Positions 3,283-58,030 of a DNA stretch of 64,000 nt are shown here, piece by piece. The DNA lies in the NCBI GenBank assembly GCA_035380285.1, contig DAOSXE010000015.1, positions 1,927 to 65,926 on the forward strand, written 5' to 3'. The position numbers and the translations under genes are program-made. This DNA is from a bacterium (GTDB lineage Bacteria; Auribacterota; Erginobacteria; Erginobacterales; DAOSXE01). How positions within the stretch are numbered: position 1 is the stretch's first letter; each line of letters begins with the position of its first letter. The notes under the pieces are model-generated. The model saw only the letters and a list, made by a program, of their open reading frames with translations. It ran no database searches and had not been told where the DNA came from.

Positions 3283-3500
3283 CAGCCCGGCCCGGAGAAC
3301 GCCGGGGGCCAGCGCCGGGTCGGCGGCGTGCCGTCGCTCCAGGAGGGCGCCCAGTGCCTCGGCGCGGCGGTCGTAGAAATCCGCGAAGTCCGCGGTGGCT
3401 CCGGCGGCGGAGACGGGGGCGAGCCGCCGGGATTGCCGGATGTATTCCCGCGCCGTGCCGATTTCTCGTCCTCCGTTGTCGGCGACGGGCACGGGCGCCT

Positions 3501-4532
3501 CTAGAAACGGACCCCGGCGAAGCCGGTCACGGTGTTCATCCGGAAGTCGAACGCCTTGTCGAACTTTTCCCGCAGCTCCTCGATTTCGTCCGGGTCGCGG
3601 TCCAGGGCGTTGACCTCGCCGTCCGTACGGAAGTGCAGGTACGCCCCTCCGAAGAACAGATCGACCGCCTCCGAAACCGGGAACTCGATCCGGGCGCTGA
3701 GGCGGTAGGTGTCGAAGTCGATGTCGAGGTCCTTTTCGTGGCGGGTCTTGACGGGGAAATGCTCGGTGGAGCCGTTGTAGGAGAAAAAACCGTAGCGACC
3801 GGAGAGGACCAGGCGCACGCCGTCGGCGGGGCCGAGGGTAAGGTCGCCGCCGGCCCCGAGCACCGGAAGACCGATCCCGCCCCAGCCGTCGGTCTGGCCG
3901 CCGATCACGTACTCCACCGGGGGCTCCTCGTAGACGGTGGTCCCCCGGGGGGGGCCGTCGTCGAGATCGTACTTGCCGAAAATGCCGATCAGCCCCAGGT
4001 AGATCCAGGGAACGAGCGCCACCGATTCCGCGGGTTCGAAGGTGAAGGGGGTGAAAGCAAGATCGATCTCGACCAAACCGGAATCGAGCGAGGCCGTGAA
4101 CTCGTCCCCTTCCGGAATCATCATGTGGTCGTAGCTCTTCCCCCGGTATTCGATGTCGTCGTCGATCCCGATGTAGTAATCGCGGTTGGCCACGGCATCG
4201 GCGTCGGTTCTGAAGTAGGAAGCCTCGAAACTGAGGGTGAAGTATTTCCATTCCTTCTCCACCGCGATGCCGAAGATGGGAACCCGGTCGTTGAGGCCGA
4301 GGTCGTCCAGGGAATACGTGGAACCCTCGCTCTCCCTTCCGATCAGCTCGTAGTACGGGCGGACGGTCTCGGTCACCTCTCCCTCCAGTTCGGAGACCAT
4401 TCCGCCCCCGACCGAAATCAGCCAGCCCCGATCGATCCCGTCGTCGCGGCCCCAGCGAAAAACCCCGGTCCCGGCCCGGGCGGAAGCGGCCCAGCAGCCG
4501 GCGAGGGCGACGGCGAAAAGCAATCTATTCAT
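3501..4532 (-). CDS. Outer-membrane beta-barrel protein
   Basis: Signal peptide MNRLLFAVALAGCWAASARA, alternating-hydrophobic beta-strand pattern, and a C-terminal ...GFAGVRF with terminal Phe typical of OMPs. Confidence 0.6.
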   Translation of the reverse strand: MNRLLFAVALAGCWAASARAGTGVFRWGRDDGIDRGWLISVGGGMVSELEGEVTETVRPYYELIGRESEGSTYSLDDLGLNDRVPIFGIAVEKEWKYFTLSFEASYFRTDADAVANRDYYIGIDDDIEYRGKSYDHMMIPEGDEFTASLDSGLVEIDLAFTPFTFEPAESVALVPWIYLGLIGIFGKYDLDDGPPRGTTVYEEPPVEYVIGGQTDGWGGIGLPVLGAGGDLTLGPADGVRLVLSGRYGFFSYNGSTEHFPVKTRHEKDLDIDFDTYRLSARIEFPVSEAVDLFFGGAYLHFRTDGEVNALDRDPDEIEELREKFDKAFDFRMNTVTGFAGVRF

Positions 4533-6344: not shown

Positions 6345-6373
6345 TTGACATTATGGAGGGAAAATGGTAATAT
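6345..6373 (+). promoter_or_regulatory. Sigma-70-type promoter candidate for the 6412 gene
   Basis: TTGACA (6345-6350), 17-nt spacer, TAATAT (6368-6373). A GGAGG Shine-Dalgarno sits ~8 nt before the ATG at 6412. Confidence 0.5.
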
Positions 6374-6411
6374 TTAAATCAGTCCATTCAATCCTTAACG
6401 GAGGCTCTTTC

Positions 6412-8925: not shown

Positions 8926-11019
8926 ATGACCAGAGAAATACCAATCGAAAAAGTCCGAAACATCGGGGTCATGGCCCACATCGACGCCGGGAAAACCACG
9001 GTGACGGAACGCATCCTTTTCTTCACCGGCCGCAGCCATAAGATCGGAGAGGTACACGACGGCGAAGCGACCATGGACTGGATGGTTCAGGAACAGGAAC
9101 GCGGGATCACCATCACCTCGGCGGCCACCACCGCCTTCTGGAAAGGCCATAGAATCAACATCATCGATACCCCGGGCCACGTCGACTTCACCGCGGAAGT
9201 CGAGCGTTCGCTCCGGGTCCTGGACGGGACCGTCGCTCTCTTCTGCGCGGTGGGCGGCGTCCAGCCCCAGTCGGAGACGGTATGGCGCCAGGCCGAGAAA
9301 TACATGGTCCCGCGTATCGCCTTCATCAACAAGATGGACCGGATCGGGGCCGATTTCGACGGCGTGGTGAAGGAAATCGAGGTGACCCTGGGGGCCAACC
9401 CGGTTCCGATCGTGATCCCGATCGGGGCGGGCGCGGAATTCGAAGGCGTCGTCGATCTGATCGAGATGAAGGCGATTTTCTACGACGAGGCGCCCGTCGG
9501 GGCGCGGATCCGGGAAGAAGCCGTTCCGGCCGAGCTCAGGGAAAGAGCGGAAGCCGCCCGGGAGTTTTTAGTCGAACGGGTCAGCGAACAGGACGACGCC
9601 CTCATGGAGAAATACGTGGGGGGACAGGAACCCTCCCGGGACGAACTGACGGCGGCCCTGCGCGGGGCCGTCATCCGCGGGGAGGTCATCCCGGTCCTCT
9701 GCGGCGCCGCGTTCAAGAATAAGGGCGTCCGCCGGCTGCTCGACGCCATCGTCGATCTTCTCCCCTCCCCCCTCGACCTGCCCCCGGCCATCGGCACCCG
9801 CAAGGAGGAGAACAAGGAGATCATCCGCCACCCTTCCGAGGACGCCCCGCTGGCCGCCCTGGCCTTCAAGATCATGGCCGACCGGCACCTGGGGAAACTG
9901 ACCTACCTGAGGGTCTACTCGGGGGTGCTCGCCAACGGGTCGTTCGTCTTCAACTCCAACCTGGAAACCAGGCAGCGGGTGGGGCGGATATTCCTCATGC
10001 ACGCCAACAAGCAGCAGGCGGTCGACAATTTGAGAGCCGGCGAGGTGGGGGCGGTGGTCGGCCTGGCCGAGACCAGGACCGGAGACACCGTCTGCGACGA
10101 GGCGCACCCCATCATCCTGGAAAATATCGATTTCCCCGCCCCGGTGATCGGGGTGGCCGTGGCCCCCGCCAGCCGGGCGGACCGGGATCGCCTGGCGGCG
10201 GCCCTGAGCCGCCTGGCCGACGAAGACCCCACCTTCACCGTCCGCACCGAAGAGGAGACGGGCGAAGTGATCATCTCGGGCATGGGCGAACTGCACCTCG
10301 AGGTCATCGTCGATCGGCTCAAGCGCGAATTCAACGTCGCGGTCGAAGTCGGGCAACCCCAGGTCGCCTACCGGGAGACGATCCTGGGGGATATCGAGCA
10401 CCGTTACCGCCACGTCAAGCAGACCGGAGGCCACGGCCAGTTCGCCGACATCATCTTCCGGATCGAGCCGGGCCAACCCGGCGAAGGCTTCCAGTTCTTC
10501 AACGAAATCCGGGGGGGGAACATACCCCGGGAATACATTCCTTCGATCGAACGCGGGGTGGTCGACGCCATGGCCCAGGGACCCTACGCCGGATTTCCCA
10601 TGGTCGACATCGTTTATACCGTCCTGGACGGATCGGCCCACGAAGTCGACTCCTCGGACATGGCCTTCCGCACCTGCGCCGCAGTCGGCTTCAAGGAAGC
10701 CTGCCGCAAGGCGGGCCTGCAGCTTCTGGAACCGATGATGAGCGTGGAGATCGTCACCCCCGAAGAATATATCGGCCCCCTGACCGGGAGCATCTGTTCC
10801 AAGCGGGGAAAGGTAACGAGCCTGATCCACAAGGCCACGCACTGCGTCCTCGCGGGCCAGGTGCCCCTGGCCAACATGTTCGGCTATTCCTCGGAACTGC
10901 GCACCATCACCAGCGGCCGCGGCGATTTTTCCATGCATTTCGAACACTACGCCGCCGTGCCCTTCTCCCTGGCGGAGGAGATCGTGGAACGACGGCGCCG
11001 GGAAGAGAAAATTCCCTGA
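8926..11019 (+). CDS. fusA: Translation elongation factor G
   Basis: [34 protein letters not shown] and a full-length EF-G layout. Start chosen at [12 protein letters not shown] (8926); the track ORF starts at 8869. Confidence 0.95.
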
Positions 11020-11088
11020 AGCGGCGGCCGCGAGGGGGCCCGGCGGAAAAAAACCGGCTCCCCGGGGGAGGGAACCGGTCGTGGAGCT
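10915..11088 (+). repeat. Direct repeat copy 1 (174 bp): authentic fusA 3' end + spacer + 7 nt matching the tRNA-Ala 3' end
   Basis: By base-by-base reading it is identical to 21573-21746. It covers the last 34 fusA codons plus stop, 62 nt of spacer and TGGAGCT. Confidence 0.9.
11047..11078 (-). terminator. Hairpin + T7 terminator copy inside repeat copy 1, positioned to terminate the island operon
   Basis: Same sequence as 21705-21736. On the minus strand CCGG..CTCCC-CCG-GGGAG-CCGG is followed by TTTTTTT. Confidence 0.4.
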
Positions 11089-11281
11089 TTGTCCCTCGAT
11101 CTCAAACTTACTTTGACAACGAAAATGCGCCTACCGGAACATACGATTCGTGAAGTGTGGTTTACTTCACGACCGCGTGCGAGTATCGAGCCGCTCAGCA
11201 CGGGCGCGCAATAACCAGTGTCCTTTACCGTGCTGGCATATCATCACCGCTTTCCAGACCATAAGTACTCACTCGCTGAGT

Positions 11282-12310
11282 CTACGGCACCATCCTCGCG
11301 AAGTAAGGGTAGAGACGAGAGTACCGCTCGTAGTTGCTCATCTTGGCGATACTAACTTCCTCCGAGTCATCACCCTCAGTTAGATACCCTAGAGCGGTAA
11401 CACATACTGTCCCGTCTCCCGTTTCGGTCGGCAGAATTTCTTCGAGCTTCAGACGCTCCTTCGTGCTCAGCACCGGAACATCGATCTCATCGATCAAGCC
11501 CGAAGCAGTCACATAGAGGGGGCTCGTAGCCTTAAAGTGACCAAGCAACGCATCTCGGTTATTCTCCGGACAGAACACCCCTGTTATGCTTAACATAATT
11601 GTACCATCCGAGTACTTTGCCACCTGTAGCGGAAGAAAAGTCTTCGGCTTACTGCAAGCGCTCTCCAGAACCGATAGCACCATATGACTGAGCAACCATG
11701 GGAAGTTCTCCTCTTTGAAGTTCTCCCATGTGAACAGGTCATGGTCATAGGATACTTCTGCGACTGTCATGGCCTTCAGGTAATCATCTCGAAACTCATT
11801 GAAATCTTTCTTCTTGTAGGACGGAAGTATCTGCTGATGGCGCCGAAGCTTGACCTCCCTATATACCGGGGTCTCCGCCATGAGCGTTACCCGCAGCACA
11901 CTCCATTCAAGAGCCTGACGTGCGATACCGGACACTTCTGTCAACTCTTGTCGCCCAGCATCAACGTAATCCACCCACACAATCGTTGGTTTTTCGCTGG
12001 GAAACAGCGTTGACAGGAATTCCTCAAACCGACAGGACAGAAGTTTCACTTTTTTTGAACACTGGTGGAATTTCTGTCGCCTGTACGTCTCACCATCACT
12101 CTCAACCGACACCATGTCAAGGTTCGGGAACACGTTGCTCAGCAACCTGAAGTCTTCAAGAAACGGACCTCCAAACCCGATATACAAATGCTCTTTCAAG
12201 CTATGTGTGAGTTCAAACGTACGCAGCAACTCGACCAAGACCAAGCGATCAATAGCCTTGTTGGATCGCAAATGATATGCTGGATGTTTTGGTTTTCTGA
12301 GCCAGGTCAT
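11282..12310 (-). CDS. Hypothetical protein, last gene of the island operon; N-terminus weakly Rossmann/methyltransferase-fold-like
   Basis: 342 aa. The start overlaps the upstream gene by 4 nt. The pattern LYIGFGGPF ... MVSVESD ... VKLLSCRFEEFL ... TIVWVDYVD resembles beta1-beta4 of a class I MTase fold. I recognise no catalytic motif. Confidence 0.5.
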   Translation of the reverse strand: MTWLRKPKHPAYHLRSNKAIDRLVLVELLRTFELTHSLKEHLYIGFGGPFLEDFRLLSNVFPNLDMVSVESDGETYRRQKFHQCSKKVKLLSCRFEEFLSTLFPSEKPTIVWVDYVDAGRQELTEVSGIARQALEWSVLRVTLMAETPVYREVKLRRHQQILPSYKKKDFNEFRDDYLKAMTVAEVSYDHDLFTWENFKEENFPWLLSHMVLSVLESACSKPKTFLPLQVAKYSDGTIMLSITGVFCPENNRDALLGHFKATSPLYVTASGLIDEIDVPVLSTKERLKLEEILPTETGDGTVCVTALGYLTEGDDSEEVSIAKMSNYERYSRLYPYFARMVP

Positions 12311-13740
12311 TCCCTCGCCTCCTCAAGGATCACGTCAAAGCACCTCGCCCCAACATTGGATGGATTTCTGTCGGGGCTATCAAAGATGTACTGTGAAACA
12401 CGACGCACATCCCTGACAGCACGGGTAAAGACTATTCGCTCCGTCGTCTTCTTCTTGTCCGGTCGCGGTAACACAGGTTTGTACTGTTTGCCTTTCACGG
12501 CACCGCGCGTCGCAGTCATGTGCAATTTCAATGCTCGAGTTCGAATCTCGTCAAGCGTCGCTTTGTGTGTTGATCTCATCTCACATCGAGACTTGGCAAC
12601 GAGATCCTTACCTTTCCATTGGTTAGTGTACTGAGTGAACATCTTTGTTCCCTCAATCATCTTGTCACGCACCTGCAGGTAAAGAGGAGATGAGGCCTCG
12701 ATCCCTCTTTTGGTTGTCGTCATAGGCAAGAGATTCGCGTCATCCGCACTGAATATGACAATCCCCGATATCGCAATGAATTGCATGTGGTATTGCGGCA
12801 CTCCCGAAACTCCCCACCCAGTCAAAGGCGTCTTGTCACAGTAAACTACAGTTCGGTCGTTGCAGATCACAGTCCACCCGGCCTCTGCAGAAGAATACCG
12901 CTCCTTGTAGTTCTCAAGGCCTTCGTCTGCCTCCTCTCGGCTGGGGATCGGGCTCGTGAAACCCACAACAAGGAACACATCAACCCCATCGTGTTTCCCT
13001 TCGTAGATAAAGGGCATTATCGGGTGCTTCGATCTCACCGCTTCCTCCGCGAATAGCAGGCTTATGCTCCTAGGAGTTACCGCCTTTCCGTTGATACGGA
13101 CTTCAAACCCCTTGCCAATGATGTACGCATAGTGCGTCGCTACGGCCTCACGAAACGCTCTCTCAAAGGCTCCGGATTCGAATTCCGTACGCACGGATGA
13201 GTAAATACTTCTGATTTCAAGTGTGGTACCAAGAGTTTCTGCTGGCTTGATCGCGACTACGGGAATCAACCAGTCATCCTCTTTTGATATCCACTGCGGT
13301 GATAGCCGCAAACGGTAAGAACCGTCCTTCGCATGTGTTCTGATTGTGCAGTCCGCTCCCATCTTGAAGATGGCGCGCTTCATCCCAATTCCATACGTAC
13401 CGATGGTTTTTTTCCCCTTGTCTATGTCCGCTTTAATCCGTCCCATGCGAAAGGCGTAGTCATGGTATCTCACCGGTATCCCCCCACAGTTGTCTTCAAT
13501 CCTGAAGCGCGTCCCGTCAAACTCAATACTTGCCCAATATCCCTCGTATGGGAGACGCCTAGAAAGTTGCCGTTTCGTTTCAGCCCGCTGAATACCATCT
13601 ACACAGTTATCCAGCAGATCCAGGATCGCATCCTGAAGCTCGATGTCCCTTGTTAGCATATGTACGAAAAACGACTTGACCGGATTGGCCGGAATGTGTG
13701 GGATCTTCCTAAGATGCATCTGAGTAACCTCCTTATTCAA
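12307..13740 (-). CDS. GHKL (Bergerat-fold) ATPase, MORC-like / HATPase_c_3 type
   Basis: N-box AILDLLDNCVDG, G1 box EDNCGGIP, G2 box IGTYGIGMKRAIF. 477 aa, with a ~220-aa uncharacterised C-terminal half. Confidence 0.75.
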   Translation of the reverse strand: MNKEVTQMHLRKIPHIPANPVKSFFVHMLTRDIELQDAILDLLDNCVDGIQRAETKRQLSRRLPYEGYWASIEFDGTRFRIEDNCGGIPVRYHDYAFRMGRIKADIDKGKKTIGTYGIGMKRAIFKMGADCTIRTHAKDGSYRLRLSPQWISKEDDWLIPVVAIKPAETLGTTLEIRSIYSSVRTEFESGAFERAFREAVATHYAYIIGKGFEVRINGKAVTPRSISLLFAEEAVRSKHPIMPFIYEGKHDGVDVFLVVGFTSPIPSREEADEGLENYKERYSSAEAGWTVICNDRTVVYCDKTPLTGWGVSGVPQYHMQFIAISGIVIFSADDANLLPMTTTKRGIEASSPLYLQVRDKMIEGTKMFTQYTNQWKGKDLVAKSRCEMRSTHKATLDEIRTRALKLHMTATRGAVKGKQYKPVLPRPDKKKTTERIVFTRAVRDVRRVSQYIFDSPDRNPSNVGARCFDVILEEARE

Positions 13741-14914
13741 TAAACTCCTTCATGCGACTAAGTACGCTTTCTGCCAGAATCGGGCTGATGCTATTCCCGA
13801 TCTGTCTAAAGCTGTGCCACTTCGTCGAGTCGAACTGGAACCAGTCGGGGAAGCCCTGCAACCGGGCCGCTTCCCGGGGAGTAATGACGCGCGGCTCTGT
13901 GGGGTGAATTGGCCGAAGGGCTTGGTAGCTTCCATGCTCCGGGTCTGAGCCCGATCTTAGAGTCGGACAGAACCCCTTCCGTGCCAAACGCACAGCTCGC
14001 GAAGGCCCGTCAATGGCTCCCTCCGCCAGCTTGGCGAATCTCTCCAGAACGGTTTTCGTATGCCGTGTACCAAGACAGCCTGAAACGCGGTTCTCGTCTT
14101 GCAAGCGCCTAATCGCCTCCAGATCGCCAACACCCTCTGGTATCTTGTCGCGAATCCTTTCCCAAAACGGGCCGCTGTTGTGAGGCGTTACTGTGCGCCA
14201 ACTCTGGGCTTCTTGCTGCCACTCAGGACTGATCTTCTGGCGAAGACCTAGAAGTGCCGTCCCAACGTTGACTTTCGCGACGTTGGCAGGGGGCGCAAAA
14301 CAATCCTTCGTCAACCCGTTCGCACGCCCCACAACAATACCAATAAAGAACACTCGTTCTCGACTTGTTGCCGCGCCGAAATCCGATGCTTTGAGAATAA
14401 TAGGACCGAGGTTTATGTAGTTAGCCACTCTGGCCAACGCATTCGCGCGAACTTCGTCGAATTGAGAGTCCCGTATGCCTAGCACGTTCTCAGCAATGTA
14501 AAACGTGGGTTGAAGCTCCGCCACCAACCGAAAGAAGTGGTCGAACAGGTTGTTGCGCGCGTCATTTGGTTTGCGGCGACCGATTCGACTAAAACCCTGG
14601 CATGGCGGTCCACCGATAACCCCATCAATTCCGTTGATGTCGATTTGGGCCTTCTCAATAAGTTCTGCGCCTGTGAGTTCAGCAATGTTTGCATCAACGT
14701 ATTCGTATTTAGGGAAGTTCTTCTTGAAAGCGGATTTGGCTTGGGCATTGTTATCCACGGCTGCGGCAATCTGGAAGCCTGCGCGCGCTGCACCGAGAGT
14801 CAACCCTCCCACACCGCAGAACAAGTCAATGACCGTCGGCATACCTTCTGTTCCCTTCGCCGTTTTTCTGTTACCCGTGAAGCTCAGATCCGTCTCTATT
14901 CTTAACTGTATCAA
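13733..14914 (-). CDS. dcm: DNA (cytosine-5)-methyltransferase
   Basis: Motif I DLFCGVGGL, motif IV GGPPCQGFS, motif VI ENV, motif VIII SRERVFFIG, motif X QIGNSISP. The true start may be the internal MPTVIDLF. Confidence 0.9.
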   Translation of the reverse strand: MIQLRIETDLSFTGNRKTAKGTEGMPTVIDLFCGVGGLTLGAARAGFQIAAAVDNNAQAKSAFKKNFPKYEYVDANIAELTGAELIEKAQIDINGIDGVIGGPPCQGFSRIGRRKPNDARNNLFDHFFRLVAELQPTFYIAENVLGIRDSQFDEVRANALARVANYINLGPIILKASDFGAATSRERVFFIGIVVGRANGLTKDCFAPPANVAKVNVGTALLGLRQKISPEWQQEAQSWRTVTPHNSGPFWERIRDKIPEGVGDLEAIRRLQDENRVSGCLGTRHTKTVLERFAKLAEGAIDGPSRAVRLARKGFCPTLRSGSDPEHGSYQALRPIHPTEPRVITPREAARLQGFPDWFQFDSTKWHSFRQIGNSISPILAESVLSRMKEFIE

Positions 14915-15313
14915 TCACAGGCACTCCTCAAATCCATCTTCTGAAAGAATCGCTAGCCTTCCCCCTCTGCGAATCCAAGTGGCTATTCTCTTCACATCTC
15001 GGCCTTCACCAAACGCTGGGGTGCGCCTCCGAACGGCGCATTCCCAAATCACGAGAACACGCCAGCCCATATCTAGCAGTTTGCCTCGCACGCACAAATC
15101 TCGCAATCTGTTGCGTTTAATCTTCTTATTCCAAAACTGCTGATTGCTCTTTGCCTTCGGCCTTCGACCACATTCATGCCCATGCCAGTAGCATCCGTGG
15201 ACGAACACAACAGTCTTATGCCCGGCTAGAACAATGTCAGGTCGGCCCGGTAGATTCCTGGCGTGTAACCGATACCTAAAGCCTTCTCCAAACAGCGTCC
15301 TACGCACCTCCAT
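14915..15313 (-). CDS. vsr: Very-short-patch repair endonuclease (N-terminally short)
   Basis: GFRYRLHARNLPGRPDIVL...VFVHGCYWHGHEC...FWNKKIKRNRLRD...GWRVLVIWEC is the Vsr signature. It abuts the dcm start. Confidence 0.85.
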   Translation of the reverse strand: MEVRRTLFGEGFRYRLHARNLPGRPDIVLAGHKTVVFVHGCYWHGHECGRRPKAKSNQQFWNKKIKRNRLRDLCVRGKLLDMGWRVLVIWECAVRRRTPAFGEGRDVKRIATWIRRGGRLAILSEDGFEECL

Positions 15314-15386
15314 TTCCGGGCCTGTGTTTTTCCCCGATTCGCAGCCATGATCTTGTGCCGAGTCTCAGCATTTACTCGGTCCACCA

Positions 15387-15653
15387 TCAAGACTTCCCTG
15401 CCCTTTTGTCCCGTTGATGCACTTTGTTATGACAAACGATGCACAATGTCTTCAGGTTCCCTTCAATATTTACGCTGCCCTTCACGTGATGCTCGATGTG
15501 ATGCAACTCCAAGTGTCGCGGATCGAACGGGTTCCATTCGTCGTGCGCCCACGCGCAAAACCGGCACTTGTCCCCGTCGCGCCGAAGCAACGGAAGCAAG
15601 CCGAACACACAGTTCAATCGCTTGTCCGACATAGAGATGTGGGGCGACCGCAA
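15387..15653 (-). CDS. Small HNH endonuclease
   Basis: CRFCAW...LELHHIEHHVKG...NLKTLCIVCHNKVH (HNH/Zn-ribbon pattern). 88 aa. It overlaps the 3' end of the upstream gene by 40 nt, or 19 nt from the internal Met. Confidence 0.75.
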   Translation of the reverse strand: MRSPHISMSDKRLNCVFGLLPLLRRDGDKCRFCAWAHDEWNPFDPRHLELHHIEHHVKGSVNIEGNLKTLCIVCHNKVHQRDKRAGKS

Positions 15654-16720
15654 CCTGCAATCTCACCAACCGCCTGACCGACAACAGCGTATGTGTCATA
15701 GCTCGGTATCCGGAGCATTGGACCGGTGAAAGACGCACAAAGAAGAGGTACTCGTTCGCGTAGATGTGCAGACCCCAAATCTCCTCCGCCAATCTTCACA
15801 CCATGGTCAGCCACTACGAACACCCAATCGCCAGAACGAAGAAAATCCAAGAATGACTGTAGAAAAGCGTCAAACCGCTCAAGGGTTCGCCAGCACGCCG
15901 ATGCATCTCCCATGTGGGCATAACGGTCAAAATCCTCCAGATTGACCATGATAAATGCCTCGTCCTCCGCCGCTGTAACCTCTGCATTCAACAGCTCAAA
16001 GCACTGCTCGTCTCGCTCAGTTCGTACTGCCATATTCGCTGGCAAGGATAGGATTTCCTGCACCTTGCCGTTGACTATCCGTCTCCATCCAAGCGGCACG
16101 AATTTCTGCAGCAGAGACTCTCCATCGATCATCTGAAAGAAGTCACGCCGTAGTTCTTCAACCGGTTCTCCGCCACGCAACGGTCTTGCAAGCACCTTCT
16201 TCACGCATAACTCCGCTGATGCATCCAACATGCAGCGGAGTGCCTGTGCGACTTTATATAGACACTCACGGGGCACGACAATTTCATCTGCACTCACGAC
16301 CACAGTGCTGTCGAGCCCCCTATAGAGCATTATTGCCCCAGTTTGCAAATGTTCGAGCCACAACTCCGGGAGAACATCCCTGCCCCTTCCCTGTTTGTTG
16401 CCAATCAACTTAACTCCACAATTATTGCCAAGCTTCATCAGAACATCACGCGGTAGCGGTTCCGAGGGTATAGGGTGAGGTTGTTTAGTTATCCATCCGA
16501 ACATCTCGCGATGTCCTTCCTCCGATCCCACCGCGACTGACGCTTGTCTCATCACATGTCCACGACCCGTGACCGCAGCATCCAATCCCATATTAAAAAG
16601 GACTGGAAGAACGGAGATTTTGCGGCCGTACTGTTCGCACAGAGTCCCTAGGGTGCTGGTCTCACCGCCGTCAGGAGCAACTCCAAAACCATCTACAACG
16701 ATCACAAAAACGCGCGACAT
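15614..16720 (-). CDS. Phosphopentomutase (DeoB)-like metalloenzyme of the alkaline-phosphatase superfamily
   Basis: Blocks are collinear with E. coli DeoB as I recall it: RVFVIVVDGFGV (RAFIMVLDSFGIG), GHREMFG (SGHWEIAG), VLARPL (VIARPF), NLEDFDRYAHMGD (NFVDFDSSWGHRRD), VVADHG (LTADHG), HLRERVPLL (HTREHIPVL). Confidence 0.7.
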   Translation of the reverse strand: MSRVFVIVVDGFGVAPDGGETSTLGTLCEQYGRKISVLPVLFNMGLDAAVTGRGHVMRQASVAVGSEEGHREMFGWITKQPHPIPSEPLPRDVLMKLGNNCGVKLIGNKQGRGRDVLPELWLEHLQTGAIMLYRGLDSTVVVSADEIVVPRECLYKVAQALRCMLDASAELCVKKVLARPLRGGEPVEELRRDFFQMIDGESLLQKFVPLGWRRIVNGKVQEILSLPANMAVRTERDEQCFELLNAEVTAAEDEAFIMVNLEDFDRYAHMGDASACWRTLERFDAFLQSFLDFLRSGDWVFVVADHGVKIGGGDLGSAHLRERVPLLCASFTGPMLRIPSYDTYAVVGQAVGEIAGCGRPTSLCRTSD

Positions 16721-18534
16721 CAGGATTCAAATTTTCTGATTCGCAGGTTAACGAATTCAACAACTTTCCGCCAAAGACTGGCGATTGAAACTTTGCTGCC
16801 AAGCGAGAGTTCTCCTTCATACTGAAGAAGAAGAGGAATGATCGGTATAGTTACCTTTAGCTTGTCCGTAACAGAAATATCAGACTTCAGCACAGTGGAA
16901 GTAACGGAGACCCGTTCTGCGACCTTAGGCAAAATGGCTGAAGATTTTATGGTGTCACAGAGCGTCGCTAACACCTCTCTGGATTCTTCAAGCAGCGCTT
17001 TCATCTCCTCTGTTTCAGGCTCATGGTCCATCGCTGAGACGAATGACTCGACAACAACATCCCGGGCCGTTCTCGCCTCTGATACCGCCTCTGTAGCAGC
17101 GATCTTCCCTGCCATCTGAAGTTGTTCGTATTCCATGACAGACGCGACGACTCTGCCCCGTATCTCTAGGATATCTTCCTCAAGCCGCTGGATGCTTTTG
17201 GGTCGGTCCTCGACTCTCAGGGTATCTTCAGTGCGTTTGAGAAGGACGAAGTCCTTGCGTAGATTATCCCGAATATCTTCCAGCCTCTGTTTCTCTACCG
17301 GTATCCCGTTAGCCACTGTTTCGTCCTTCCTCTCTTCACAGGATCTGGGAACGCCGACGATTCTCCTCACATCGGTCAGAATATCCTTTGGGGCCGATGC
17401 CTCGGAGACAGCGCCAAGAATATGCACCAATGCTGTCACGCTCGAACGTATCCGCTCTGGGTCCGAAAGCAACCCGCGTCCCATTTGAATCATCACGTCC
17501 GCACCAAATGTCTCAACGTTCTGAAATATTTCTTCGAGGAAAATACTTCCCGAAGAAACAGCGAAGCATGGTCTGAGACCATACTGATCGCCCTGTAGCT
17601 TTTCGATTTCCTCCTTCAATATTGCTTGCTCATACGGAAAATCCTGGGTGAACGGCCCTGTGTAGACAGCATCTCCACCTGCAAGTCGCGAAAGTAGGGC
17701 AATTACCTGCTCCGCTAGGTAGTGCGTGCTCTTGCGCGTCAATACACCCCGGCCGATGTTGTTCACAACGAATGCTGTCTGACCATCACACGTATCGATC
17801 ACATGCCTGACAGCCGAAAAACCCATCGCGATACAGTTGAGGGTAAAACCACAAACGCCATGGCGCTGTCCATCCTCGACCAAGCGCAAGGATGTCTCCA
17901 CATCTGCGGTTGCATTCATGAAGTAGCCCAACTTGCGCCCCGTTTTCTCTTGGGCTGCAGTAACTACGGTTTCAATGGCCTGTGCGCGTTGTCCAAATGG
18001 ACTACAACTTGGGGACACGAGCAACTCGTCGTCAATCACGTAGTCAACACCACCCTCCAATGCTCTTTGCACTGTTGGGAGAATATCAGATAGACTCATG
18101 CGCAACCGCGGTTTCAGGATGAGCCCCAGAAGCGGCCGTTGGGAAACACCAAGAAGCTTCCTAATCCCTGATACACCATACCTTGGCCCCTTGTATTCAT
18201 CGAGGCAAACTTTGGGCAATGCCAGATCCACCACGGCAAATCGCTTCAGCGCTGAAAAGACAGAGCAATAGCACACACTCCCTAGGAGCATGGCGAGACC
18301 CGTACCAAGTCCAGCAGAACAAGGCGGCAGGGACAAAAGCACTTCAAGCTCGTTCTTGGATTGATCAATCTCACGAACATCGAGAATCTCTGGGTCTTCG
18401 TGAAATTCACAAGGCTCATCGGTACGTCGCAGCGGAATCGTTCCGGTGCTGCCTAGATCCATCGCAGCGAGGAGTTGCTTCAGCCCCTTCTCACGGTTTT
18501 CTAGGATCATGTGAAGTGTTACAGTTGCATGCAT
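16720..18534 (-). CDS. Divergent RuBisCO large-subunit-like protein (RLP) with ~240-aa C-terminal extension
   Basis: N-domain AAMDLGSTGT. Barrel blocks GPRYGVSGIRKLLGVSQRPLLGLILKPRL, GGVDYVIDDE, TGRKLGYFMNAT, LSRLAGGDAVYTG, AVSSGS, MIQMGRG are collinear with RuBisCO/RLP blocks. IDDE replaces KDDE. Confidence 0.75.
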   Translation of the reverse strand: MHATVTLHMILENREKGLKQLLAAMDLGSTGTIPLRRTDEPCEFHEDPEILDVREIDQSKNELEVLLSLPPCSAGLGTGLAMLLGSVCYCSVFSALKRFAVVDLALPKVCLDEYKGPRYGVSGIRKLLGVSQRPLLGLILKPRLRMSLSDILPTVQRALEGGVDYVIDDELLVSPSCSPFGQRAQAIETVVTAAQEKTGRKLGYFMNATADVETSLRLVEDGQRHGVCGFTLNCIAMGFSAVRHVIDTCDGQTAFVVNNIGRGVLTRKSTHYLAEQVIALLSRLAGGDAVYTGPFTQDFPYEQAILKEEIEKLQGDQYGLRPCFAVSSGSIFLEEIFQNVETFGADVMIQMGRGLLSDPERIRSSVTALVHILGAVSEASAPKDILTDVRRIVGVPRSCEERKDETVANGIPVEKQRLEDIRDNLRKDFVLLKRTEDTLRVEDRPKSIQRLEEDILEIRGRVVASVMEYEQLQMAGKIAATEAVSEARTARDVVVESFVSAMDHEPETEEMKALLEESREVLATLCDTIKSSAILPKVAERVSVTSTVLKSDISVTDKLKVTIPIIPLLLQYEGELSLGSKVSIASLWRKVVEFVNLRIRKFES

Positions 18535-18543
18535 AATCGATCC

Positions 18544-19113
18544 TTAGTGCTTAACGTCAATGACTTTGCCATCTACAAGAAAGGTTCCGCTCGTCAAGTG
18601 GTACACCTGCGGTATTGCACTTCTCAGTTTTATCTTATCCTCTGAGAACAATTCTTTATCGATATCTGCTGCAACGACCAATCCAACAACAACGTGGTGG
18701 TTTCCTGCCTCCTTGTGCCATTGCAGCTTACATTCCAGATTGACTGCACATTCTGCTATCCGCGCGGGCTTCACCTTGTTCCTCGCATATGGTGTCAATC
18801 CCGTTTCCTCAAACTCATCCACGGCCGGCGGATACTCGTTAGCAGCCTGGTAAAGTTGAGTCAGAATCTTGCTCGTAGGAATTCCTACCACAAACTCGCC
18901 GGTCTTTGAGATATTCTTGAAGGTGTCAGACTTTGGCGAGATACCAAGCGCAACCATCGGGGGGCACGTCGAACACGGCGTGAACATAGCGTAGGGTGCC
19001 AAGTTCTTAACCCCCGCTGTGTCGACCGTTGACACGAGTACAACAGGGGACGGCTGAACCAAGTAGACAACTTTTGCAACTTTGTCTAAGACCTCGATCT
19101 TCTGATACTTCAT
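18544..19113 (-). CDS. Flavin reductase-like (FMN-binding split-barrel) protein
   Basis: 189 aa. PSPVVLVSTVDTAGVKNLAPYAMFTPCSTCPPMVALGISPKSDTFKNISKTGEFVVGIP matches the flavin reductase-like domain pattern. Confidence 0.7.
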   Translation of the reverse strand: MKYQKIEVLDKVAKVVYLVQPSPVVLVSTVDTAGVKNLAPYAMFTPCSTCPPMVALGISPKSDTFKNISKTGEFVVGIPTSKILTQLYQAANEYPPAVDEFEETGLTPYARNKVKPARIAECAVNLECKLQWHKEAGNHHVVVGLVVAADIDKELFSEDKIKLRSAIPQVYHLTSGTFLVDGKVIDVKH

Positions 19114-21059
19114 CTTGTATCTCCTCTCATCTGATCTACCATTTCAACCAAATCCGCAAAAACAAGGTCTGGCCGGGAATCATGCGTGCGTCGAGCCACA
19201 TCTTCAGCAGTACTTATCCCTCCAAGAACAAGGCAAGCCAACGCTCCAGCCTTTCTGGCTGCTGCTATGTCAGTATCGAGCGAATCCCCAATTACGGCTA
19301 CCTCTTGCGGTTTCATACCCATAAGATGAAGTAGAAGGCGAAGCGAGAAGTCATTTGGTTTCCCCACGACAAAGGGCGATTTGCCAGTTACTGTTTCAAT
19401 TGCAGCCACAATCCAGCCAGTTCCGGGCTTGTCCATACCCGGAGCAGCGAACACACGATCCCGGTCCGTGCATACGAACTCCGCACCCTTCAAAATTGCT
19501 CGCTGGGCTGCCACTAGGTCGGCATATATGAAATCCTTTGAATAGCCAACGACAACTGCGTCAATGTAACCAGTGTGATCATTGGCGGCGATATCCATGC
19601 CACCGCAGGCGAGCAACTCAGGTAGTGCTGGTGCTCCACCCAGCACCAAGCAACACCTGTATCCCTTAGTGCGGCAATACTCGGCAGCGGCAATAGTGGA
19701 CGTCATGATATGCCGCGGGTCCGCTATCACGGCCATCTGGCCGAGTTTGTCTGCTAACTCCTGCTGCCTTCTTACGCTCGTGTTTGTCAAGAAGCCAACT
19801 GTAACGCCAGATTGTCGCAAAATGCGAATGGCCGCGAGGCTGGCTTCTATCGGCTTGTCTCCTTTATAGAGAACACCGTCGAGATCCAGCACAACTCCCC
19901 GTTTTGAAGCCAGATCCCGCAGCTTATCCGTGGACTTTACTGGCACCCTCGGATGGCGTGGCTCGCGTGGGCGTGAACATTGGATCGTATAGAGCGACCT
20001 CACGGCGGTATTCCAGGATAGCTTGTACTCTTCATGGCCGCGCATGAAATCAACTTCCTGTAGCCCGTTATCGCAAGCCCATCGAATCGCTTCACCCAAT
20101 AGCACTAGCCCCGGAGAACAATCGTCTAACGCCAAATCAAAGGATGTGTTCCAGTCATAGTATCTGCCACCACGGATGAAGCCCATCCGATAAGCAACTA
20201 TGTTGCCGTTCAGAAGCAGATGAAAAAGACAGAAATTCCCGGTTCCGGCGAAATCTTTCGCAACGTCATGAATGAAGCCTCTGCGCCTTGTGTCGGCAAA
20301 TGCTTGGACTCCGTGAATACTGTCCCAACGAGTATCATGGAGATCAAATAGACGTTCGAGGGTTTCATGGTCGTAATCCCGGACAACTTGGAGTTCTACC
20401 TTGCCGCGGCGGCGCAGAGCCCGCATCTTGCGGTTCAGCATTCGCCGCCGGTTTCTTGTCCGTGACTTAAGATACTTATCCCAAGAACAACCAAGTTCTA
20501 TATACGGCGCATCCTCTGCCCTGACAATAACCGGTGATAGACCGCAATCTTGAAGTGCACGTGTTACAATGTGCAAGGTGACGTCATCTTGCCGTATGTT
20601 TTGTAGCCTTATTTCATCCCATTCCAAATGGTCGCACATCGCGGCTGCGATGCGGTCGATAGGATCACATGCAAAGGCCGAGAAGACTCCGCCTAGGTAG
20701 TCACTACAACAATCAGAAAGAAGCGTAAGGATCGTATGGGATCCTACGCGTTTGCGCATCAGAGGCAGAATGGCAAGAACGTCATCTCCCAGCGCGGCCC
20801 AGAAGATGGACAATTCCCTGTCAGAACCGAAGTGGCCCCACCAGTACGAAAGCCAACGTGGATCAACCGAGACTGGAAGGTTAGGCTGTTTTTCAAGGAT
20901 CTTAACCCAGTGAGGGTAGATTGCGGACCACTCCTCATTGCTCCTCACAACACCGACCTGGGCCCTACGATAGTCGCGTTCCGTCGACATGTAGTTACGC
21001 AGGGAATATTGCCAACTTGTCTGTGATGCATCCAGCCAGCTATCGCTGCACATCATCAC
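19110..21059 (-). CDS. Fusion protein: GNAT-type (FemAB/CelD-like) acyltransferase + HAD-IIA (NagD-like) phosphatase
   Basis: The N-terminal ~360 aa end in VDFMRGHEEYKLSW (CelD/BioF2-like GNAT pattern). The C-terminal part has VVLDLDGVLYKG, FLTNTS, VGKPN and IGDSLDTDIAAARKAGA, which are HAD motifs I-IV of the IIA subclass. Confidence 0.7.
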   Translation of the reverse strand: MMMCSDSWLDASQTSWQYSLRNYMSTERDYRRAQVGVVRSNEEWSAIYPHWVKILEKQPNLPVSVDPRWLSYWWGHFGSDRELSIFWAALGDDVLAILPLMRKRVGSHTILTLLSDCCSDYLGGVFSAFACDPIDRIAAAMCDHLEWDEIRLQNIRQDDVTLHIVTRALQDCGLSPVIVRAEDAPYIELGCSWDKYLKSRTRNRRRMLNRKMRALRRRGKVELQVVRDYDHETLERLFDLHDTRWDSIHGVQAFADTRRRGFIHDVAKDFAGTGNFCLFHLLLNGNIVAYRMGFIRGGRYYDWNTSFDLALDDCSPGLVLLGEAIRWACDNGLQEVDFMRGHEEYKLSWNTAVRSLYTIQCSRPREPRHPRVPVKSTDKLRDLASKRGVVLDLDGVLYKGDKPIEASLAAIRILRQSGVTVGFLTNTSVRRQQELADKLGQMAVIADPRHIMTSTIAAAEYCRTKGYRCCLVLGGAPALPELLACGGMDIAANDHTGYIDAVVVGYSKDFIYADLVAAQRAILKGAEFVCTDRDRVFAAPGMDKPGTGWIVAAIETVTGKSPFVVGKPNDFSLRLLLHLMGMKPQEVAVIGDSLDTDIAAARKAGALACLVLGGISTAEDVARRTHDSRPDLVFADLVEMVDQMRGDTR

Positions 21060-21064
21060 TCCTG

Positions 21065-21262
21065 TTACTTGCTTTTTTCTTCCCGGGCGGCGAGATTCTC
21101 CTCAATCATGCGTGACACAATCCAAGAGAGCGAACGCTCCTCTTTCTCCGTCAACTCTTCCAAGATTTCTTAGACTTGCGGGGTAACTCGGACGCTCAGG
21201 AGTTTTATTTTCAGTTCAACCTTGTGCCTTTTCGTAGGGTGTACGACGTCATGCATTTGCAT
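21065..21262 (-). pseudogene. Ribbon-helix-helix (CopG/Arc-like) regulator gene interrupted by an in-frame TAA
   Basis: My translation is MQMHDVVHPTKRHKVELKIKLLSVRVTPQV*EILEELTEKEERSLSWIVSRMIEENLAAREEKSK*. The internal TAA is at 21170-21172. The strand-helix-helix pattern is continuous across the stop. The gene ends 5 nt before the 649-aa gene, which has an AGGAG RBS. Confidence 0.55.
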
Positions 21263-21330
21263 GCTGATTTTAATAATATATGATGTGTATGCTGTGTGAT
21301 GATAGTAGAAAGAAGAAGGATCCGATAAAC
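21263..21330 (-). promoter_or_regulatory. AT-rich putative promoter region of the island operon
   Basis: This is the most AT-rich stretch in the window (minus strand ...CATCATATATTATTAAAATCAGC-ATG). Several TATATT/TATTAT -10-like hexamers lie just upstream of the RHH start. I found no clear -35 or SD. Confidence 0.25.
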
Positions 21331-21572
21331 TGCTTTCTGTATGCCCATTAGTCGATTGATTAGTCCACCCGTCAGATGCTATAAATTGAGGCGCAGGTCA
21401 CGGGACTTTTGGAGTATGCCCAGAAGGAACGTCTGCATCGTGGAGAAGTTTACGGAATTCATGACAGCATGGAAACCGGGCTGACCGGTTTTCAATGCAA
21501 TGATGGATCGGGGAGTCAAATGCGCTGCTCGCGTGGCTCCCTGACCGCTTCGGGCGTAACCCACTCGGCGGG

Positions 21573-21677
21573 GGCCGCGGCGATTTTTCCATGCATTTCG
21601 AACACTACGCCGCCGTGCCCTTCTCCCTGGCGGAGGAGATCGTGGAACGACGGCGCCGGGAAGAGAAAATTCCCTGA
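21573..21677 (+). pseudogene. Orphan 3' fragment of fusA (last 34 codons + stop) inside repeat copy 2
   Basis: It encodes [34 protein letters not shown]. The upstream sequence in the same frame has no resemblance to EF-G. Confidence 0.85.
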
Positions 21678-21704
21678 AGCGGCGGCCGCGAGGGGGCCCG
21701 GCGG

Positions 21705-21736
21705 AAAAAAACCGGCTCCCCGGGGGAGGGAACCGG
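21705..21736 (-). terminator. Rho-independent terminator candidate downstream of tRNA-Ala
   Basis: On the minus strand a hairpin (outer CCGG/CCGG, inner CTCCC-CCG-GGGAG) is followed by T7 (plus-strand A-run 21705-21711). It starts 4 nt after the tRNA 3' end. Confidence 0.45.
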
Positions 21737-21739
21737 TCG

Positions 21740-21812
21740 TGGAGCTGAGGGGATTCGAACCCCTGACCCCATGGCTGCCAGCCATGTGCTCTCCCAGCTG
21801 AGCTACAGCCCC
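21740..21812 (-). tRNA. tRNA-Ala (anticodon GGC)
   Basis: A 73-nt cloverleaf folded by hand: acceptor GGGGCUG/CAGCUCC with the G3:U70 alanine identity pair, D-arm GCUC-AGCUGGGA-GAGC, anticodon loop CU-GGC-AG, T-arm AGGGG-UUCGAAU-CCCCU, A73. No CCA is encoded. Confidence 0.95.
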
Positions 21813-21926: not shown

Positions 21927-23465
21927 ATGAACCGGATACTGCCGATAATCTGCTTGAGCGCGGCGATAGCGGGCGGGGGCTGCTCCGCCGAGGATAAGCC
22001 GGCGGCGGGGGCGGGCGAACGGAAGCCGGTCCTGGCGGGCTCCTACTATCCCGCCGACCCCGGCGAACTCAAACGGGAAGTGGATGCCCTGCTTGCCGCC
22101 GCCCCCGAAGTTTCCGTTCCCGGGAGGCTGCTGGCCGTGGTCGCTCCTCACGCCGGTTACGTTTATTCGGGACCCACCGCCGCCGCCGCCTTCAAGGCCG
22201 TGCGGGGGAGGAAGATCGCCACGGTCGTACTCGTCGGCTGCGCCCACCGGGTCGGCTTCCCCGGCGTCTCCGTCCCCGATTTCTCCTCTTACCGGACCCC
22301 CCTGGGGGCGGTGCCGGTCGATTCGGTTCTGGCGGAGCGGATCCGGGCGGCCGCCCCGGAGATTGTCAGCATTCCCGGGGTCCACCGCAGCGAACCCACC
22401 CTGGAGGCGGAGATCCCCTTCATCCAGACGGTGCTCCCCGACGCCCGGATCGTGCCGGTTTTGATCGGGGATGCGCCGCCGGCGGCCTTGGCCGCGCTGG
22501 GAACGGTCCTGGGCGACATTCTCAGGGACGATCCGGAAACGATCGCGGTCTGCAGCACCGATCTCAGCCACTACCCCGGCGTCGAAGACGCGGCCCGGGT
22601 CGACCGGCAGACGCTTGAAGCCGTGGCGGCGCTCGATCCTTCCCGTCTCGACCTGGTCCGGGAGCGCTTCGAAGGCGGGAACGTTCCCAACCTGGTCTGC
22701 GTCATGTGCGGATTCCGGGGGGTCAAGGCCGTCGTTGCCGCGGCCCTCCGGGCCGGGGCCGACGGAGCCGCCGTCATCGCCTACGCCAATTCGGCCGATT
22801 CCCCGGCGGGGAACCCCGACTCCGTGGTCGGTTACGGCGCGGTGGCGATTTACGATTCCGAACGAGACCGAGCGGACAATCAGGAGGAGCAGCCCATGAA
22901 CACCGCCACCGACGCAAATCTCTCGCCGAAGGCCCGGGCGGAACTGCTGAAGACGGCCCGCGAAGCCCTGACCGCGGTCGTCAACGGCAGGCCGCTTCCC
23001 GATTCCCCCATCGACGACCCCGAACTCCAGGGGCACCGGGGCGCGTTCGTCACCCTCAACGAAAACGGGGCCCTGCGCGGGTGCATCGGCCAGTTCACCG
23101 CCGACGAGCCCCTCTACCGGGTGGTGCGCACCATGGCCCGCGAAGCCGCCCTCCACGATCCCCGTTTCGTCCCGGTCTCCCCCGCCGAAGCGGACCGGAT
23201 CGACATCGAAATCTCGGTTCTCTCCCCCATGCGGCGGATCTCCGATCCCCTCCGGGAGGTGGTGCCGGGCAAACACGGCATCTACATCCGGCGGGGGGCG
23301 CGGGGGGGCACCTACCTGCCCCAGGTCGCCACCGAACACCACATGGGACTGGAGGAGTTCCTCTCCTCCTGCTGCGCCCACAAAGCCGGCCTGGCTCCCG
23401 ACGCCTGGAAAGACCCGGAGACGGAGGTCTACGTCTACACCGCCGAGGTCTTCGGCGAGGAGTGA
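21927..23465 (+). CDS. Fusion of MEMO1-like (AmmeMemoRadiSam system protein B) and AMMECR1 (system protein A) domains
   Basis: N-half: AGSYYPADPGEL...VAPHAGYVYSGPTAAAAF...STDLSHY. C-half: GAFVTLNENGALRGCIG...HGIYIRRGARGGTYLPQVA. The N-terminus is hydrophobic, MNRILPIICLSAAIAGGGCS. Confidence 0.8.
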   Translation: MNRILPIICLSAAIAGGGCSAEDKPAAGAGERKPVLAGSYYPADPGELKREVDALLAAAPEVSVPGRLLAVVAPHAGYVYSGPTAAAAFKAVRGRKIATVVLVGCAHRVGFPGVSVPDFSSYRTPLGAVPVDSVLAERIRAAAPEIVSIPGVHRSEPTLEAEIPFIQTVLPDARIVPVLIGDAPPAALAALGTVLGDILRDDPETIAVCSTDLSHYPGVEDAARVDRQTLEAVAALDPSRLDLVRERFEGGNVPNLVCVMCGFRGVKAVVAAALRAGADGAAVIAYANSADSPAGNPDSVVGYGAVAIYDSERDRADNQEEQPMNTATDANLSPKARAELLKTAREALTAVVNGRPLPDSPIDDPELQGHRGAFVTLNENGALRGCIGQFTADEPLYRVVRTMAREAALHDPRFVPVSPAEADRIDIEISVLSPMRRISDPLREVVPGKHGIYIRRGARGGTYLPQVATEHHMGLEEFLSSCCAHKAGLAPDAWKDPETEVYVYTAEVFGEE

Positions 23466-34481: not shown

Positions 34482-34484
34482 CCG

Positions 34485-36113: not shown

Positions 36114-36131
36114 CTTCGCGTCGCCGCCGGC

Positions 36132-57911: not shown

Positions 57912-57953
57912 CAATACCTCCTGGATGCTCATCCGCTACGGCTGCAGAAGGGT

Positions 57954-57988
57954 ACGCCCGGGCGGCCGCAGCCGGGCCGCCCGGGCGT
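57954..57988 (-). terminator. Perfect 13-bp GC-rich hairpin between the H1-like gene and the kinase gene
   Basis: ACGCCCGGGCGGC (57954-57966) pairs with GCCGCCCGGGCGT (57976-57988) around a 9-nt loop. No U-tract. Confidence 0.3.
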
Positions 57989-57991
57989 TGA

Positions 57992-58012
57992 CCCGCGCCC
58001 GGCGGGCGCGGG
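57992..58012 (-). terminator. Second perfect 9-bp GC hairpin
   Basis: CCCGCGCCC (57992-58000), loop GGC, GGGCGCGGG (58004-58012). Confidence 0.25.
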
Positions 58013-58030
58013 AACTGTGCGTACTCGGTG

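Follow-up and report, generated by a model that had tools for sequence, protein, structure and literature searches.

An integrase-less genomic island between an EF-G gene and tRNA-Ala(GGC) in an Erginobacterales bacterium, and its RuBisCO-like gene cassette

Introduction

Islands of foreign DNA residing at tRNA genes are the closest described counterparts of the locus treated here. In Islander-type islands, foreign composition is combined with an intact tRNA gene and a displaced 3' fragment of that gene, which lies downstream in the same orientation, the target having been restored; the island also encodes a tyrosine integrase. The direct repeats of tRNA-site islands are reported in the literature to range from 15 to 221 bp, with a mode of 20-25 bp, and the asymmetric 3' end of the tRNA gene is, besides the anticodon loop and the T-loop, a recognised crossover sublocation. 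Integrase-less islands at tRNA sites have also been documented. The present analysis concerns a segment of 10,484 bp (positions 11089-21572) that lies between the 3' end of an elongation factor G (EF-G) gene and position 66/67 of a tRNA-Ala(GGC) gene in a bacterium of the Auribacterota (Erginobacteria; Erginobacterales; DAOSXE01). It was studied within a window of 64,000 nucleotides, that is, the whole stretch of DNA analysed (GenBank assembly GCA_035380285.1, contig DAOSXE010000015.1, positions 1,927 to 65,926 of the forward strand), to which all coordinates below refer unless another contig is named.

Two further systems invite comparison. Campbell-type insertion-duplication, known mainly as a laboratory outcome, yields an exact duplication of one contiguous host segment around the inserted DNA. 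Cis-mobilisable elements (CIMEs), described in streptococci, are island remnants that are flanked by attachment (att) sites and lack an integrase.

A duplicated host tract and the foreign DNA between its copies

The segment is a genuine genomic island of foreign DNA within the chromosome. An earlier note on this DNA had proposed that everything between two copies of a host tract is an insertion, and both the identity of the repeat and the composition of the DNA between its copies bear this out. Direct alignment of 10915-11088 with 21573-21746 gave identity at 174 of 174 positions, so that the direct repeat is perfect, as first described. This pair is the sole long exact repeat within the window, in which a 52-nt portion of it occurs exactly twice, against no occurrence in 100 shuffles; neither terminal inverted repeats nor further copies were found there. 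The edges of the repeat are sharp, the 500-bp sequences beyond either edge aligning at shuffle level in local alignments. Diverged att arms, or a longer fusA remnant beside copy 2, were considered and rejected, as there is no homology past the repeat edges. The GC content of the repeat (0.667) is host-like. Its length, which the earlier note had called unusual for an identity tract, is less remarkable than was claimed, since it falls within the range reported for tRNA-site islands.

Copy 1 (10915-11088, attL-like) begins with 105 nt of the fusA 3' end, namely the final 34 codons and the stop codon of the EF-G family gene, and continues with a 62-nt spacer and a displaced 7-nt fragment of tRNA-Ala (11082-11088, minus strand). 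A check of the reading frame confirmed that this copy holds the genuine end of the gene, with the spacer and terminal heptanucleotide previously noted. Read against the tRNA model, these last 7 nt of the repeat, TGGAGCT, correspond to tRNA positions 67-73, which comprise the acceptor stem's 3' strand together with the discriminator base. Copy 2 (21573-21746, attR-like) consists of an orphan fusA 3' fragment, the native terminator of the tRNA and the last 7 nt of the tRNA itself. The intact tRNA-Ala(GGC) was placed at 21739-21812 on the minus strand by ARAGORN and at 21740-21812 by Rfam model RF00005 (67 bits); together with the sequence read, these agree with the earlier statement that copy 2 ends inside an intact minus-strand tRNA gene. 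A tRNA fragment of only 7 nt would escape a tRNA-only search.

The insert differs sharply in composition from its surroundings, and the visibly lower GC content noted earlier was reproduced. GC content is 0.50-0.53 in the insert (0.51 overall) and 0.61-0.72 outside it (0.65), while GC at third codon positions (GC3) is 0.51-0.59 in all eight island genes against 0.69-0.91 in the flanking genes, or about 0.55 against 0.85 overall. The two halves of the island show tetranucleotide correlations to the host mean of 0.445 and 0.433, compared with 0.92 +/- 0.03 for host windows, of which the lowest gave 0.875. The two modules that make up the island correlate with each other at r = 0.75 and with the host at 0.41-0.46; their mutual correlation suggests that the two halves arrived together from one donor background.

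The EF-G family gene (fusA-like; 8926-11019, plus strand; 697 aa), the last 105 nt of which lie in copy 1, encodes a product with all five EF-G domains by Pfam (GTP_EFTU, EF-G_D2, EFG_III, EFG_IV and EFG_C). Its start was set at the ATG at 8926, and the exact protein recurs on other contigs. The gene lies outside any str-operon setting and may therefore be a paralogue. On the far side, a Memo-AMMECR1 fusion gene (21927-23465, plus strand; Pfam) is a conserved divergent neighbour of the tRNA and serves as the host-side anchor.

The repeat also contains an intrinsic-terminator hairpin followed by a run of seven T residues (11047-11080 in copy 1, minus strand), located by a terminator scan. The earlier note had recognised this duplicated hairpin and its position at the end of the island operon, both of which stood; its strand is corrected to minus by the terminator scan and by RNA folding. 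The stems lie at 11080-11052 and 21738-21710 on that strand, and the RNA folds at -23.8 kcal/mol into an 11-bp GC-rich stem with U7. In copy 2 the terminator is the tRNA's own; in copy 1 it closes the island operon. The duplication leaves both host genes and the tRNA terminator intact, and each transcription unit gets a terminator.

The two ends of the island are non-coding. The left end (11089-11281) has no homology to the tRNA side of copy 2 and no Pfam match in its frame fragments. The right end (21263-21572), likewise without a Pfam match, includes an AT-rich, promoter-like stretch, with a GC content of 0.28-0.38 at 21250-21330 and a promoter-like site at 21300-21273 on the minus strand. 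No riboswitch or other RNA was found by Rfam in these ends, the tRNA being the only element.

Integration state in public assemblies

The same strain was found at 100% nucleotide identity in 15 public records (JGI, ENA, Logan and NCBI; exact-protein look-ups), which are not necessarily independent raw data. Both junctions of the island are crossed by three contigs, namely the window itself and two NCBI contigs from metagenome-assembled genomes (MAGs), DAONIV010000016.1 and CAYVZY010000011.1; the island-to-tRNA junction is crossed by at least four further contigs. The remaining contigs stop exactly 141, 127, 123, 55 or 30 nt into the repeat. These numbers are assembler k values, and contig stops at k bases inside a repeat are what a two-copy repeat exceeding k in length produces.

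Such a pattern raises the alternative of an assembly artefact, in which fusA directly faces tRNA-Ala and the low-GC segment is a separate circle of 10,658 bp, or DNA of another organism sharing the tract. An integrated island and an empty site accompanied by a tract-bearing circle yield the same de Bruijn graph, and the break of many assemblies within the repeat, which no k-mer used (up to 141) spans, would be in keeping with either. Two contigs also look cyclic: L102 has a 123-nt terminal overlap, and L103 consists of the repeat, the island and the first 30 nt of the repeat again. However, all contigs in which the repeat is resolved, which stem from several samples and assemblers, join either fusA through the repeat to the island or the island through the repeat to the tRNA. 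The empty site, fusA-repeat-tRNA, was seen in 0 of the 16 contigs carrying either flank gene, and no contig shows the circle junction, in which the right end of the island would be joined to its left end by way of the repeat. When metagenome contigs were scanned with a degenerate pattern for all four kinds of junction, only two junctions were retrieved, both island-to-tRNA. The two cyclic-looking contigs end exactly at the repeat edges, as is expected of graph cycles. In addition, a free circle of 10.7 kb is unlikely because the island genes, by Pfam, include no replication, partition or integration gene, and a segment of this kind could hardly persist as a circle.

Five contigs from differing samples and assemblers, coming in from the right, end at repeat offsets 166-177, which correspond to 11080-11091 in the island context and 21739-21741 in the tRNA context, just 3' of the GC-rich hairpin. 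Alternative biological junctions at these positions were considered and rejected, as the same repeat offsets occur in both contexts. Sequence-specific dropout of coverage or assembly past the hairpin is the simpler reading that these ends suggest, and it would account for the k = 141 assembler having run through one 174-bp copy. The occurrence of such ends in both contexts fits hairpin dropout and tells further against an artefact, which is judged to be very improbable. The locus shows that a repeat longer than the assembler k-mer can mask whether an island is integrated or exists as a circle.

Recombinase search and the ancestral site

The earlier note had also reported that no integrase is present, and this was upheld when the search was widened. 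No integrase, transposase or recombinase was found by Pfam among the island genes or among 38 of the 40 called flanking genes of the window (all but those at 3025-3504 and 6364-8775). Nor was a decayed integrase detected by Pfam in the non-coding ends of the island when all stop-to-stop fragments were searched.

Relatives of the two host genes provide a partial view of the site before insertion. Among GTDB species representatives, the closest relatives of the EF-G protein are 68-71% identical; none of their genes has an adjoining tRNA, and synteny is lost past the gene. The identity of Memo-AMMECR1 falls from 100% to about 57% with no intermediates, its nearest named relatives being those of Candidatus Erginobacter occultus and of Auribacterota and 'PVC group' MAGs. 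All copies of the island are 100% identical, and relatives at about 57% are too distant for an empty-site comparison. The two nearest relatives with long contigs (L118 and L120) carry a near-identical tRNA-Ala(GGC) divergently upstream of Memo-AMMECR1, with a hairpin and T-run directly after the tRNA (L118 9413-10001; L120 9381-10001). The gene beyond this terminator differs in each and is fusA in neither. The shared arrangement implies that the tRNA, the terminator and the Memo side are ancestral and that the terminator within the repeat is native host sequence. The 3' flank of tRNA-Ala appears, from these comparisons, to be a recurrent point of rearrangement or insertion in the clade. An ancestral state in which fusA faced tRNA-Ala, as the earlier note had it, is what we infer as the parsimonious reconstruction from the repeat.

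That the tRNA 3' flank differs in every related lineage suggests a rearrangement-prone site, at which the island could have been captured during repair or replication. Linear foreign DNA would then have been joined at a stalled fork or a staggered break, and 174 nt of the target would have been copied on both sides by template switching or gap filling. A sharp-edged, exact duplication of host sequence only, the missing recombinase and the lack of terminal inverted repeats are all compatible with such an event. Against it, no microhomology or filler sequence is identifiable at the junctions, and only by coincidence would it have kept the two genes and the terminator intact, together with an operon that has a promoter of its own. 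To our knowledge, there is no documented bacterial precedent of this size for repair-associated target duplication. Capture by repair is therefore considered unlikely.

Mode of entry

Jointly, the findings are best explained by circular entry of a tRNA-site island, now non-autonomous, with a 174-bp tract serving as its attachment site, an account that we think somewhat probable. A circular molecule already bearing the tract as an attP-like site would have entered the cell and undergone conservative recombination with the same tract in the chromosome. The edge in the tRNA acceptor stem would mark the side on which tyrosine integrases that target tRNA genes at the '3'-end sublocation' act. Either another element would have provided the integrase in trans or the gene would have been lost later, leaving the island non-autonomous and similar to a cis-mobilisable element. 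Whatever its route of entry, the island would now be lost, amplified or re-integrated only by recombination between its two 174-bp repeats. Circular entry is favoured because the layout fits the configuration rules of tRNA-site islands, with an edge in the 3' acceptor strand that suits a recognised sublocation, because repeats as long as 221 bp, and islands lacking an integrase, are on record, and because related modules occur on recombinase-bearing islands. The block of identity starts at tRNA position 67, consistent with the 3'-end sublocation, and the crossover cannot be mapped more finely within identical copies.

The earlier note had read the locus as the footprint of an integrative element at a tRNA 3' end. 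As regards layout this held: the locus shares with Islander-type islands a foreign composition, an intact tRNA with a displaced fragment downstream in the same orientation and a restored target, a repeat length within their range and an edge compatible with the asymmetric 3' end. The mechanism of entry is a matter of what we infer. Unlike Islander-type islands, this one has neither an integrase gene nor a remnant of one, and neither variable presence nor excision was seen among the contigs searched. With CIMEs, the island shares two att-like direct repeats and a content of cargo only, with no recombination or transfer genes, and a borrowed integrase could in principle move it; its repeats, however, are far longer than typical att cores.

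Several observations weigh against circular entry at an attachment tract. Only 7 nt of the tRNA are duplicated, the other 167 bp of the repeat being perfect, host-like downstream sequence that includes 34 codons of a convergent gene, and a foreign element would carry such a tract only after earlier residence in the same lineage. Among the contigs searched, no integrase, empty site, circle junction or strain polymorphism was seen, and the junction calls rest on the assemblers' read-pair resolution, as no assembler k-mer (up to 141) spans 174 bp. Finally, the pattern of the repeat fits RecA-mediated insertion-duplication equally well.

In a Campbell-type event of the latter kind, a foreign circle with a captured 174-bp fragment of the host fusA/tRNA-Ala spacer would integrate by one RecA crossover, with no site-specific recombinase. 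Both genes would survive undamaged only if the fragment spanned the two gene ends, and the position of the repeat would be explained in this way. The structure of the product is identical to that observed: one contiguous host segment is duplicated exactly, and the copies are host-like in GC and sharply bounded. The genes scanned include no recombinase gene or remnant, and 174 bp should be a sufficient substrate for RecA. The event nevertheless requires an unexplained prior capture of the host fragment by a foreign circle, and a natural route for such capture is not evident here. An edge 7 nt inside the tRNA acceptor stem would be a coincidence in this case, whereas a tRNA-targeting integrase predicts it, and related modules travel on recombinase-bearing islands. 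For these reasons, Campbell-type insertion, the main rival, is regarded as rather unlikely, and circular entry at an attachment tract is retained as the preferred account.

The island operon and its restriction-modification-like module

The type of island is ordinary; its cargo, especially the RuBisCO-like cassette, is the more unusual part and the novel lead. The island forms one tightly packed minus-strand operon of two separable modules. Its function for the host would most likely be defence against foreign DNA and phages, as indicated by PADLOC matches of the Dcm-type methyltransferase and Vsr, by the literature link between paraMORC ATPases and restriction-modification and by the defence genes that neighbour the cassette elsewhere.

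Module 1 (11282-15632) comprises a small HNH gene, Vsr, a C5 methyltransferase, a GHKL ATPase of the HATPase_c_3 family and a PF20553 protein, all on the minus strand. The HNH nuclease ORF (15387-15632; 81 aa; PF01844, 27.8 bits, with a weak IscB-type HNH match) lies just upstream of Vsr and overlaps the end of the metalloenzyme gene of module 2; it is gene-called in several public assemblies. The Vsr very-short-patch endonuclease (14915-15313; 132 aa) was recognised by Pfam, PADLOC and TIGR00632. It is about 25 aa short at the N-terminus, its matches beginning at model position 26-32, and a relative in another genome has 157 aa; Vsr may thus be truncated. The C5 cytosine DNA methyltransferase of the Dcm type (13733-14914) matches PF00145 (190 bits), PADLOC MTase_II (298 bits) and TIGR00675. 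Dcm and Vsr are the only island genes that match PADLOC models. The GHKL ATPase (12307-13740; 470-477 aa; HATPase_c_3 by Pfam) is of the paraMORC type and belongs to a family with more than 4,500 relatives. ParaMORC ATPases have been tied to type II restriction-modification systems (PMC8011034). The last gene of the operon (11282-12310) encodes a 342-aa protein of family PF20553 (Methyltransf_35; 181.9 bits by Pfam). It has no PADLOC, NCBIfam or PDB relative, and no papers on PF20553 were found in a literature search; in relatives, the gene always comes next after the GHKL gene.

Vsr, Dcm, GHKL and PF20553 follow one another in this order also in the closest relative of the module, which is 68% identical; Shedu-like and SIR2 genes surround it, and the element encodes a large serine recombinase close by. 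The domain set and gene order of module 1 are thus those of paraMORC restriction-modification-like modules; in contrast to them, the island adds the small HNH gene and the short Vsr and has no recognised restriction nuclease. Module 1 is classed as a widespread, restriction-modification-like unit.

The RuBisCO-like cassette

Module 2 (15614-21059) is a cassette of four minus-strand genes. The first encodes a fusion of a GNAT domain (Acetyltransf_6) with a HAD-IIA phosphatase (19110-21059; 647-649 aa; Pfam), the HAD part of which is closest to the TK1734-type 2-phosphoglycolate phosphatase and HAD-IIA. It is followed by genes for a flavin reductase-like protein (18544-19113; 189 aa; PF01613, 93 bits), a RuBisCO-like protein (16720-18534; 604 aa; PF00016) and a phosphopentomutase-like metalloenzyme (15614-16720; 368 aa; PF01676). 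The metalloenzyme scored 146 bits against the phosphopentomutase model NF003766, under its cutoff of 256. At the head of the operon lies a CopG/RHH regulator frame (21065-21262, minus strand), the translation of which is interrupted by an in-frame TAA at 21170-21172. When the frame is read through this stop, it matches RHH_1 at 26.4 bits against a cutoff of 20.5. The TAA is identical in all assemblies, and the frame would be either a pseudogene or a case of read-through. Small ORFs upstream of the cassette in relatives were considered as counterparts and rejected, as they are not homologous to the RHH frame.

The RuBisCO-like protein has form III RuBisCOs as its closest PDB entries (E 1e-31 to 1e-28). 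In an alignment to 8dht and 3a13, the KPK motif is changed to KPR, KDDE to IDDE and the HGHRAMH region to NNIGRGV, and the loop-6 lysine falls in a gap. Thus, Ile stands in place of the carbamylated Lys201, and the regions of His294 and Lys334 are missing, while Asp203 and Glu204 are retained. These changes hold in all nine family members, and judged by the catalytic residues Lys175, Lys201, Asp203, Glu204, His294 and Lys334 the protein is not a bona fide RuBisCO of forms I-III. It also falls below the NCBIfam equivalog cutoffs of the named RuBisCO-like families, including the MtnW/YkrW enolase and OiaX (105 against 409, 83 against 513.6 and 91.7 against 700 bits). At its C-terminus the protein carries a helical extension of about 215 aa, which terminates in a conserved PIIP motif; an AlphaFold2 model of the protein (pLDDT, a per-residue confidence measure, of 60.7) was too weak for a fold search with this extension. 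In one low-coverage contig (ERZ795057 NODE_3395, 4.5x), the gene is split into ORFs of 300 and 299 aa by a single-base gap, which is probably an assembly error and not a real frameshift.

The cassette is rare. Only about nine full-length relatives (sequence clusters) of the RuBisCO-like protein were found among 5.8 billion proteins, and neither it nor the cassette was found in phage, viral and plasmid collections. Relatives retain the order of the four genes down to 32% identity. Elsewhere, the cassette has as neighbours Type III restriction-modification genes, GmrSD, the CRISPR gene Cmr2, insertion sequence (IS) fragments, the Druantia gene DruA, a HerA-like ATPase and an HD-CE protein. A more distant case occurs in a canonical island on a Zixibacteria MAG contig (JAQVRW010000001.1, 1-9100), in which a tRNA-Arg(TCT) is followed by a tyrosine integrase and then by low-GC DNA (0.46 against 0.57). 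This island encodes a distant RuBisCO-like protein of 426 aa and a stand-alone HAD-IIA phosphatase beside NUDIX and thymidylate kinase genes; its far end runs off the contig.

In comparison with RuBisCO-like proteins (form IV) and form III pathways, the island protein shares the barrel, is closest to form III and is encoded beside pentose-phosphate and phosphatase enzymes. It differs from them in having no Lys201, His294 region or Lys334, in its long extension and in a cassette that resides in defence-type neighbourhoods and not in metabolic operons. We tentatively propose, as a possibility short of probable, that the cassette is a previously undescribed defence or conflict system. The RuBisCO-fold enzyme, without carboxylase residues, would transform a nucleoside-derived pentose phosphate, either depleting a nucleotide precursor or making a modified sugar or nucleoside that blocks phage replication, and the system would spread on integrative islands. 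The argument for defence is that of neighbourhood, in only about five contexts, and this weighs against the proposal. PADLOC 2.0 gave no match for the GNAT-HAD fusion, the flavin reductase, the RuBisCO-like protein or the metalloenzyme, nor for the GHKL and PF20553 proteins of module 1. No paper linking RuBisCO-like proteins to defence was found in a literature search.

Other features of the window

Two further regions of the window stand out. At 57565-58338, repeats with a 15-nt period encode lysine/alanine-rich tracts resembling histone H1 (HC2). A phosphoribulokinase/uridine-kinase family protein (56568-57932, minus strand) carries one such tract as an N-terminal fusion, and the other forms a separate 104-aa protein (58031-58345, minus strand). 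The repeat run coincides with a strong AT skew at 57-58 kb. At 34083-37595 (plus strand) there is an ORF of 1,170 aa with no Pfam match, a GC content of 0.82 at first codon positions and a GC3 of 0.69, which may not be a real gene as called. It adjoins a gene for a 1,930-aa WD40/beta-propeller and lamin-tail-domain protein (28132-33924, minus strand).

Significance

The locus provides an example, resolved to the base pair, of an island without an integrase at the 3' end of a tRNA gene, in which an unusually long attachment tract extends over two convergent gene ends. It is also a test case for the movement of such islands by borrowed integrases as against plain homologous recombination. If the cassette does prove to be a defence system, it would represent a new enzymatic logic for bacterial immunity and a new function in the RuBisCO superfamily.

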